Source: a phage. From it: a DNA stretch of 64,000 nt. The stretch is taken from assembly GCA_019326865.1 (NCBI GenBank), contig GCA_019326865.1_4101.1; one strand, given 5' to 3'. Numbering within the stretch: position 1 is the stretch's first letter; each line of letters starts with the position of its first letter. The position numbers and the translations under genes were made by a program. The notes under the pieces were generated by a model. That model was given only the letters and a program-made list of their open reading frames with translations, did not search any database and was not told the DNA's origin. Below, piece by piece: positions 61,258 to 61,803 of the stretch.

Positions 61258-61803
61258 ATGAAACATACTATCGAACAACAAGTGTTTTCACTTCAACAGT
61301 TCAGCGTTGTGAAAGCCACATATAAAGATTCTGTTTATTACTTAGCAGGGAGTAATGATATTACTCCGTATGTAACTAAACTACAATCTGAACATAGTAA
61401 AGTTGATAATAAAGTACTTAAAGCTGGACTAGAATTATTTTTAAAAGAACATCCAGAGAAAAATCAATTGGATGTTCCTAAGTTTCACTTTATTTTGTTA
61501 GACGATCCTACAACCCATGCAGAATATGTAGAGTGTGTTTGCAGTGAAGTATTTCATATGGACCAAGAACAAGCATGGGAAGTTATTGAAGCACTAAACT
61601 CACCAGCACATTCGTATCATGTTGGTACATTTACTGATGAAATGTGTATTACATTTTCTGCAATGATTGATAATGGTAATGAACAGCTACGTCAAAATTT
61701 AAAATATGACAAGGTTCCATGTCAAGTAAATGGTAAAGATTATGATTCAGCACTTGAAGTTTTAGAAACGTTGATTCGTAAAGATTACCCAGATGATATT
61801 TAA
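61258..61803 (+). CDS. clpS: protein with C-terminal ClpS-like adaptor domain
   Basis: [56 protein letters not shown] vs E. coli ClpS [55 protein letters not shown]. Confidence 0.65.

Follow-up and report, generated by a model that had tools for sequence, protein, structure and literature searches.

The stretch of phage DNA analysed here (the window; 64,000 nucleotides (nt), contig GCA_019326865.1_4101.1) contains, next to a gene for a homologue of initiation factor IF3, an open reading frame (ORF) for a 181-amino-acid (aa) protein that, judged by its sequence, is a divergent member of the ClpS superfamily and no orthologue of ClpS. E. coli ClpS (PF02617; PDB 3O2O, 2W9R) is the N-recognin adaptor of ClpAP, and the explanation that we favour, with about even confidence, is that the phage protein is the adaptor of a ClpAP protease encoded by the phage itself. 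The DNA of the region is 93-97.5% identical to Asteriusvirus jumbo coliphages (UE-S1, 121Q, PBECO4, slurp01 and others), and we assign the source of the window, by sequence comparison, to an Asteriusvirus-type (121Q/PBECO4/Rak2-like) jumbo coliphage.

In a single-sequence scan, the protein scored 24.3 bits against the Pfam ClpS model (PF02617), marginally above the gathering score of 23, and a phmmer search against PDB sequences gave no significant match (E 0.08). When a profile built from 15 homologues was aligned by hhalign to one built from 26 canonical ClpS proteins, the match extended over 100 columns with a probability of 99.2% (E 1.5e-19). Moreover, among 1.8 billion representatives, the family profile retrieved ordinary ClpS proteins of ~100 aa at E 1e-6 to 1e-3, and in an AlphaFold model residues 75-154 form a confidently predicted core (predicted local distance difference test (pLDDT) score, 86-94) with the ClpS topology. 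The ClpS fold proposed in the preliminary description of this DNA was thus borne out by profile-profile alignment, by the modelled core and by the retrieval of canonical ClpS; its statement that the C-terminal ~100 aa are ClpS held for the match but not for the extent, the core spanning aa ~75-154 and being followed by a conserved tail of 27 aa. Because the best score against the NCBIfam ClpS model was 16.9 bits, far under the equivalog cut-off of 112, we place the protein among divergent members of the superfamily.

The ClpS fold is common to the C-terminal domain of ribosomal bL12, and it could have been reused outside Clp proteolysis, either in a translation- or ribosome-linked role beside the phage IF3 or as a stand-alone binder of protein N-termini. 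However, the bL12 C-terminal domain was a much weaker match than ClpS, and the sequence profiles favour ClpS; the phage protein has no N-terminal dimerisation or hinge region of the bL12 type; and the glutamate that contacts ClpA in E. coli ClpS is invariant. We consider such a reuse improbable.

The ClpS label for this gene is already public. The 121Q protein gp48, which is 97% identical to the protein in the window, is annotated as 'protease adapter protein ClpS', the GenBank record of the GAP32 homologue gives PF02617, the RaK2 homologue appears in UniProt as 'Adaptor protein ClpS core domain-containing protein', and PHROG 15940 spans the protein end to end (E 7e-95). The core observation of the preliminary description is correct and not new; new here are the three-part architecture, the remodelled yet conserved pocket, the two-gene unit with IF3 and the link to a complete phage set of ClpA and ClpP. 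In a comparative review of jumbo phages, host ClpAP is named as the machine that phage ClpS is likely to serve as an adaptor, and IF3 and KTSC proteins of that phage group come up separately (PMC7824862); our literature searches turned up no study in which a phage ClpS was examined experimentally.

At least 72 phage records, covering nine host genera, contained the long ClpS-like form, with identities from 97% down to about 35%, and the form made up about 20 clusters at 50% identity in the library of 1.8 billion proteins; a second homologue search with the family profile returned almost no further sequences. The shortfall against the NCBIfam equivalog cut-off and the replacement of key ligands would suit a decaying remnant of an acquired clpS without present function. 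However, the full-length protein is kept over this whole range, its N-terminal domain, C-terminal motif and pocket positions are all strongly conserved, and no frequent frameshifts or losses were seen in closely related phages, so that decay is extremely improbable.

Canonical ClpS has a disordered N-terminal extension of ~25 residues, which is pulled by ClpA as a pseudo-substrate, leading to hand-off (PMC9663308). The phage protein lacks this short disordered extension, and a 72-aa domain that is predicted to be folded stands in its place. Residues 1-64 were predicted to be folded in the full-length model and, more confidently, when modelled alone (mean pLDDT 82; range of five models 76-82), and no relatives of the 72-aa domain were detectable. 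A linker of about 10 aa, in which two prolines are invariant, joins the domain to the core and is the sole part resembling the canonical ClpS junction. The phage protein differs from E. coli ClpS also at the other end, where the 27-aa tail adds a predicted helix (pLDDT 61-71) and an acidic end; the tail had no family match, and L169, E170, L172, I173, R174, D176, P178 and D180 are invariant among close homologues.

We mapped E. coli ClpS residues onto the phage protein in HMMER, MAFFT and hhalign alignments, all three of which agreed, and took the roles of the residues from PMC12493166 and PMC8346999. The three ligands of the alpha-amino group, N34, D36 and H66 in E. coli and N47, D49 and H79 in C. 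crescentus (PMC12493166), correspond to D82, P84 and N114; thus, the first is a conservative change and the other two are replacements. The acidic pair that the preliminary description placed at the N-degron-binding positions is present but in a different register, with D82-D83 corresponding to N34-D35 and not to D35-D36, and the histidine that it placed there lies elsewhere, as H118 aligns with K70 and is found in 10 of the 15 close homologues. Because the N34, D36 and H66 positions hold Asp, Pro and Asn, classical binding of Leu, Phe, Tyr or Trp N-degrons by the phage protein cannot be assumed. Hydrogen bonding might nonetheless be possible through the Asp that stands for N34 and the Asn that stands for H66. 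Moreover, His is also absent from the H66 position in natural ClpS paralogues and in the UBR1 N-domain, which has Asp there (PMC8346999); therefore, the change of H66 to Asn alone does not exclude binding of N-termini. Leptospira ClpS1 has an altered pocket (His to Asp, with K84 changed to Val), as has the natural paralogue ClpS2 of A. tumefaciens. Both have a short N-terminal extension and no added folded domain, unlike the phage protein, and neither these two nor the UBR1 N-domain are linked to IF3, unlike the phage gene.

Besides D83, which corresponds to D35, the pocket is still hydrophobic, with L80, L81, T86, V91, I110, L113 and L148 at the positions of L32, V33, T38, V43, M62, V65 and L99. 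The gatekeeper M40, which excludes beta-branched residues, is replaced by A88, and specificity is probably altered or broadened through this position. Within the close family, the mean majority frequency was 0.89 at the twelve pocket positions and 0.68 in the rest of the core (Mann-Whitney p 8.5e-4), and conservation of at least 90% was found at 8 of the 12 pocket positions compared with 22 of 80 core positions (p 0.0025). Because conservation is higher in the pocket than elsewhere in the core, the pocket appears to be under selection, and functional but re-tuned. In the extended family, which reaches identities as low as about 16-25%, both the NDD-type motif and the residue at the H66 position are highly variable, and the only invariant internal residue is E128.

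E128 corresponds to E79, which hydrogen-bonds E28 and T81 of ClpA (PMC12493166). The two other contacts with the ClpA N-domain are changed: E82, which forms a salt bridge to ClpA R86, is I131, and K84, which forms a salt bridge to ClpA E23, is F133. Altogether, the phage protein differs from E. coli ClpS at these sites by N34D, D36P, M40A, H66N, E82I and K84F. Short ClpS proteins of canonical size (100-118 aa), without the N-terminal domain, are encoded in the same phage super-lineage by PA5oct (gp260), Atu_ph07 and Vibrio phage 2.275.O. Unlike the long form, they have kept E79, E82 (Asp in Atu_ph07) and K84, and the PA5oct protein has also kept the canonical pocket residues N34, D35, T38, M40 and H66. 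All three genomes also carry ClpA, and those of PA5oct and Atu_ph07 carry ClpP as well.

A ClpA-type partner is present in the same phage genomes as the long ClpS-like gene but is not adjacent to it, and neither clpA nor clpP lies within the 64-kb window. The phage ClpA has the N-domain and both AAA+ rings (D1 and D2), and its Walker A and B motifs are intact; the phage ClpP has kept the Ser-His-Asp triad. The IGL tripeptide that docks on ClpP is IGM in 121Q, LGM or MGM in GAP32 and XbC2, IGF in PA5oct and Atu_ph07, and MNM, without Gly, in Salmonella phage 7t3. In 121Q, strong sigma-70-type promoters precede clpS-like, clpA and clpP; those of clpA and clpP are near-consensus, with an extended -10 element and GTGATATAAT common to both.

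The long ClpS-like protein was found in 72 records (Escherichia 34, Klebsiella 10, Salmonella 8, Erwinia 8, Yersinia 4 and four other genera with 2 each) and the phage-type ClpA N-domain in 73 (33, 11, 8, 8 and 4 for the same five genera, 2 each for the same four others and 1 for Vibrio), while the phage ClpP counts follow the same genus order (33, 10, 8, 8 and so on). These counts nearly coincide, and the mismatches are consistent with partial records. ClpA and ClpP, together with a short ClpS, also occur in PA5oct-like phages, Atu_ph07 and Phosso. Phage and host ClpA are 48% identical in the ATPase rings but only 20% identical in the N-domain, which is the docking site for adaptors. The literature treats phage ClpS, ClpA and ClpP separately, ClpS with host ClpAP (PMC7824862) and ClpA or ClpX with virion assembly, and in the literature searched we found no statement of the three as one phage-encoded machine.

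The favoured explanation draws on the ClpS fold and homology, on E128 as the only invariant internal residue, on the loss of the residues that salt-bridge host ClpA together with the divergence of the phage ClpA N-domain, on the conservation of the pocket, on the intact-looking ClpA and ClpP of the clade with their nearly coinciding record counts, also present in the more distant relatives, and on the promoters ahead of all three genes in 121Q. The ClpS-like gene would be transcribed together with the phage IF3 gene by the host RNA polymerase, and its product would dock through the helix-3 glutamate E128 onto the N-domain of a ClpA-type unfoldase, preferably the phage ClpA (gp581 in 121Q). The phage ClpA would feed the phage ClpP (gp464 in 121Q) and perhaps also the ClpP of the host, with substrates chosen by the remodelled but conserved pocket (the acidic rim D82/D83, A88 and N114), by the N-terminal domain or by both.

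The retained ClpS fold and E79 equivalent would also serve a protein that docks on host ClpA, where it either turns host ClpAP towards new substrates or, as a plug that cannot be delivered, blocks N-degron or ssrA degradation in the host; a host-directed modulator was considered in the preliminary description and proposed by Iyer et al. 2021. A host-type promoter suits such a takeover role, a folded N-domain in place of a threadable extension could make a poor deliverer and hence an inhibitor, and host ClpAP is the partner proposed in PMC7824862. However, E82 and K84, which salt-bridge host ClpA, are replaced by Ile and Phe, and the phage carries a ClpP and a ClpA of its own, the latter with a docking domain that has diverged strongly; it would have no need of them for acting on the host machine. 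Because the same phages encode their own ClpA and ClpP, we find an adaptor of the phage ClpAP likelier than a modulator of host ClpAP, which we rate as rather unlikely.

Several points weigh against a phage-owned ClpAP adaptor. Since two of the three alpha-amino ligands are altered (D36 to Pro and H66 to Asn), recognition of N-termini may be lost altogether. The predicted folded N-domain would conflict with the pseudo-substrate hand-off of E. coli ClpS (PMC9663308). In 121Q, clpS-like and clpA lie about 85 kb apart, and the three genes are dispersed, with no clpS-clpA operon. Co-occurrence in one vertically inherited clade is weak evidence of a functional link. Some annotators label the phage ClpP as 'head maturation protease'; a separate T4-type prohead protease is present in phAPEC6. 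Finally, co-variation of the docking residues is imperfect, in that 7t3 keeps Glu at the E23 position, and the N-domain alignment is of low identity.

This co-variation was considered as evidence for a matched pair of adaptor and unfoldase. The position of ClpA E23 is Thr or Ser in 121Q, GAP32 and XbC2, and the K84 position of the ClpS-like protein is Phe, while PA5oct and Atu_ph07 have kept both the ClpS Lys and the ClpA Glu. With 7t3 as an exception, and with the T81 and R86 columns not reliably alignable, we regard it as weak evidence only.

If the long form works with the phage ClpA and ClpP, these jumbo phages import a complete, self-specified regulated protease with an altered adaptor specificity, which would amount to a novel means of taking over the host and to a naturally occurring orthogonal degradation system that may interest protein engineers; if the protein does no more than mimic host ClpS, its gene is an ordinary auxiliary one. 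A further-reaching proposal, which we regard as a long shot, is that phage ClpA, ClpP and ClpS form a private, orthogonal protease with a re-tuned adaptor, which has a pocket with an Asn and without a gatekeeper and a new N-terminal domain for cargo, co-expressed with IF3 for a 'destroy and replace' takeover in which the adaptor picks out certain host proteins, e.g. translation or defence factors, for degradation and phage factors are substituted.

The IF3 homologue (TIGR00168 infC, 109 bits versus a cut-off of 60; PHROG 9787) and the ClpS-like gene are flanked by a consensus promoter and a terminator, and therefore probably form a two-gene unit that is read by the host RNA polymerase (Table 1). 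The promoter lies 45 nt upstream of the IF3 start; 121Q has the same hexamers with the same spacing, weaker sigma-70-like sites were seen by eye in GAP32 and RaK2, and none was found ahead of IF3 in XaC1. The stop codon of the IF3 homologue is separated from the ClpS-like start by 13 nt. The terminator hairpin (-22.7 kcal/mol, z -5.8) was not equalled by any of 200 shuffled sequences, and it is kept in 121Q, GAP32, XaC1 and RaK2. Thus, whereas clpS lies beside clpA in E. coli, the phage gene lies in a putative operon with an infC homologue.

The suggestion that the phage built the IF3/ClpS pairing is borne out by this position between promoter and terminator and by the conservation of the order in four phage genera. 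The accompanying claim that bacteria do not keep infC and clpS together is consistent with E. coli K-12, the one bacterial genome examined, in which (922.9-927.4 kb) clpS-clpA is followed by serW, infA (IF1) and aat. An initiation-factor gene, infA and not infC, is therefore near clpS in E. coli too, and aat codes for the Leu/Phe-tRNA protein transferase that acts in the N-degron pathway. In all four phage genera, the genes follow one another collinearly as DHFR, RNase H, Dda, two small genes, IF3, ClpS-like and KTSC; therefore, adjacency alone is a poor guide to function. Likewise, we gave little weight to function deduced from the neighbouring IF3 and KTSC genes, given the collinearity of the whole block and that KTSC is apparently on a separate late transcript. 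In Vibrio phage 2.275.O, the order IF3 ... ClpS-KTSC is kept, as in phages with the long form.

Table 1. Features of the ClpS-like gene and its transcription unit in the window, and the ClpA and ClpP homologues of phage 121Q.
Feature	Position	Strand	Remarks
ClpS-like ORF	61258..61803	+	181 aa + stop codon; ATG start
N-terminal domain, aa 1-72	61258..61473	+	predicted three strands and two helices, then Pro-containing linker (P66, P74)
ClpS core, aa 75-154	61480..61719	+	predicted strand-helix-helix-strand-helix-strand; remodelled pocket; E128 invariant
C-terminal tail, aa 155-181	61720..61800	+	predicted helix 162-176, acidic end, conserved motif LExLIRxDYPxD
Ribosome-binding site AAGGA of ClpS-like gene	61246..61250	+	read off the sequence; 7 nt before ATG, directly past IF3 stop codon
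IF3 homologue, first gene of probable two-gene unit	60741..61244	+	167 aa; Pfam IF3_N 59 bits, IF3_C 51 bits
Sigma-70 consensus promoter	60668..60696	+	TTGACA, 17 nt, TATAAT; 12/12 match, top of scanned region
Intrinsic terminator	61810..61874	+	long hairpin then U7; directly past ClpS-like stop codon
121Q ClpA homologue gp581	L006 3947-6235		762 aa; 43% identical to E. coli ClpA over aa 22-732
121Q ClpP homologue gp464	L018 2444-3139		231 aa; 36% identical to E. coli ClpP

A second strong sigma-70-like site (TTGACA, 17 nt, TATGAT; 11/12; 60472-60500, + strand) overlaps the start of a conserved 64-aa ORF (60477-60671) that lies just upstream of the IF3 promoter. Downstream of the terminator, a gene (61875-62420, + strand) encodes a 181-aa KTSC-domain protein (Pfam 50.8 bits), and its 'DnaJ-like' label in the 121Q record was not supported by any J-domain hit. 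In the soc and e genes of T4, early read-through transcripts hide the ribosome-binding site, which is exposed in late transcripts begun within the hairpin. The terminator hairpin resembles this arrangement: the KTSC gene has its GGAG ribosome-binding site in the 3' arm, and the loop contains ATAAATA in all four genera. ATAAATA has been proposed as a T4-like late promoter motif in CBB and GAP32 (PMC5259590).

A ribosomal protein S21 gene lies between IF3 and ClpS in Vibrio phage 2.275.O and, in PA5oct, beside ClpX, with ClpS and the gene of a small heat-shock protein a few genes away; by this placement, translation and proteostasis genes recur together in this phage lineage. ClpS-like profile matches were also obtained in 14 and 6 separate stretches of two other proteins, P0035 (904 aa) and P0038 (2822 aa), respectively, which may carry tandem ClpS-type repeats. 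Finally, the terminase large subunit ORF (23855-26512, + strand) encodes 885 aa, compared by length, unaligned, with ~546 aa for the Sharanji coding sequence annotated 'terminase-like family protein'. The Terminase_6N match is preceded by LAGLIDADG and homing-endonuclease domains (aa 283-363), and the ORF probably contains an intein.
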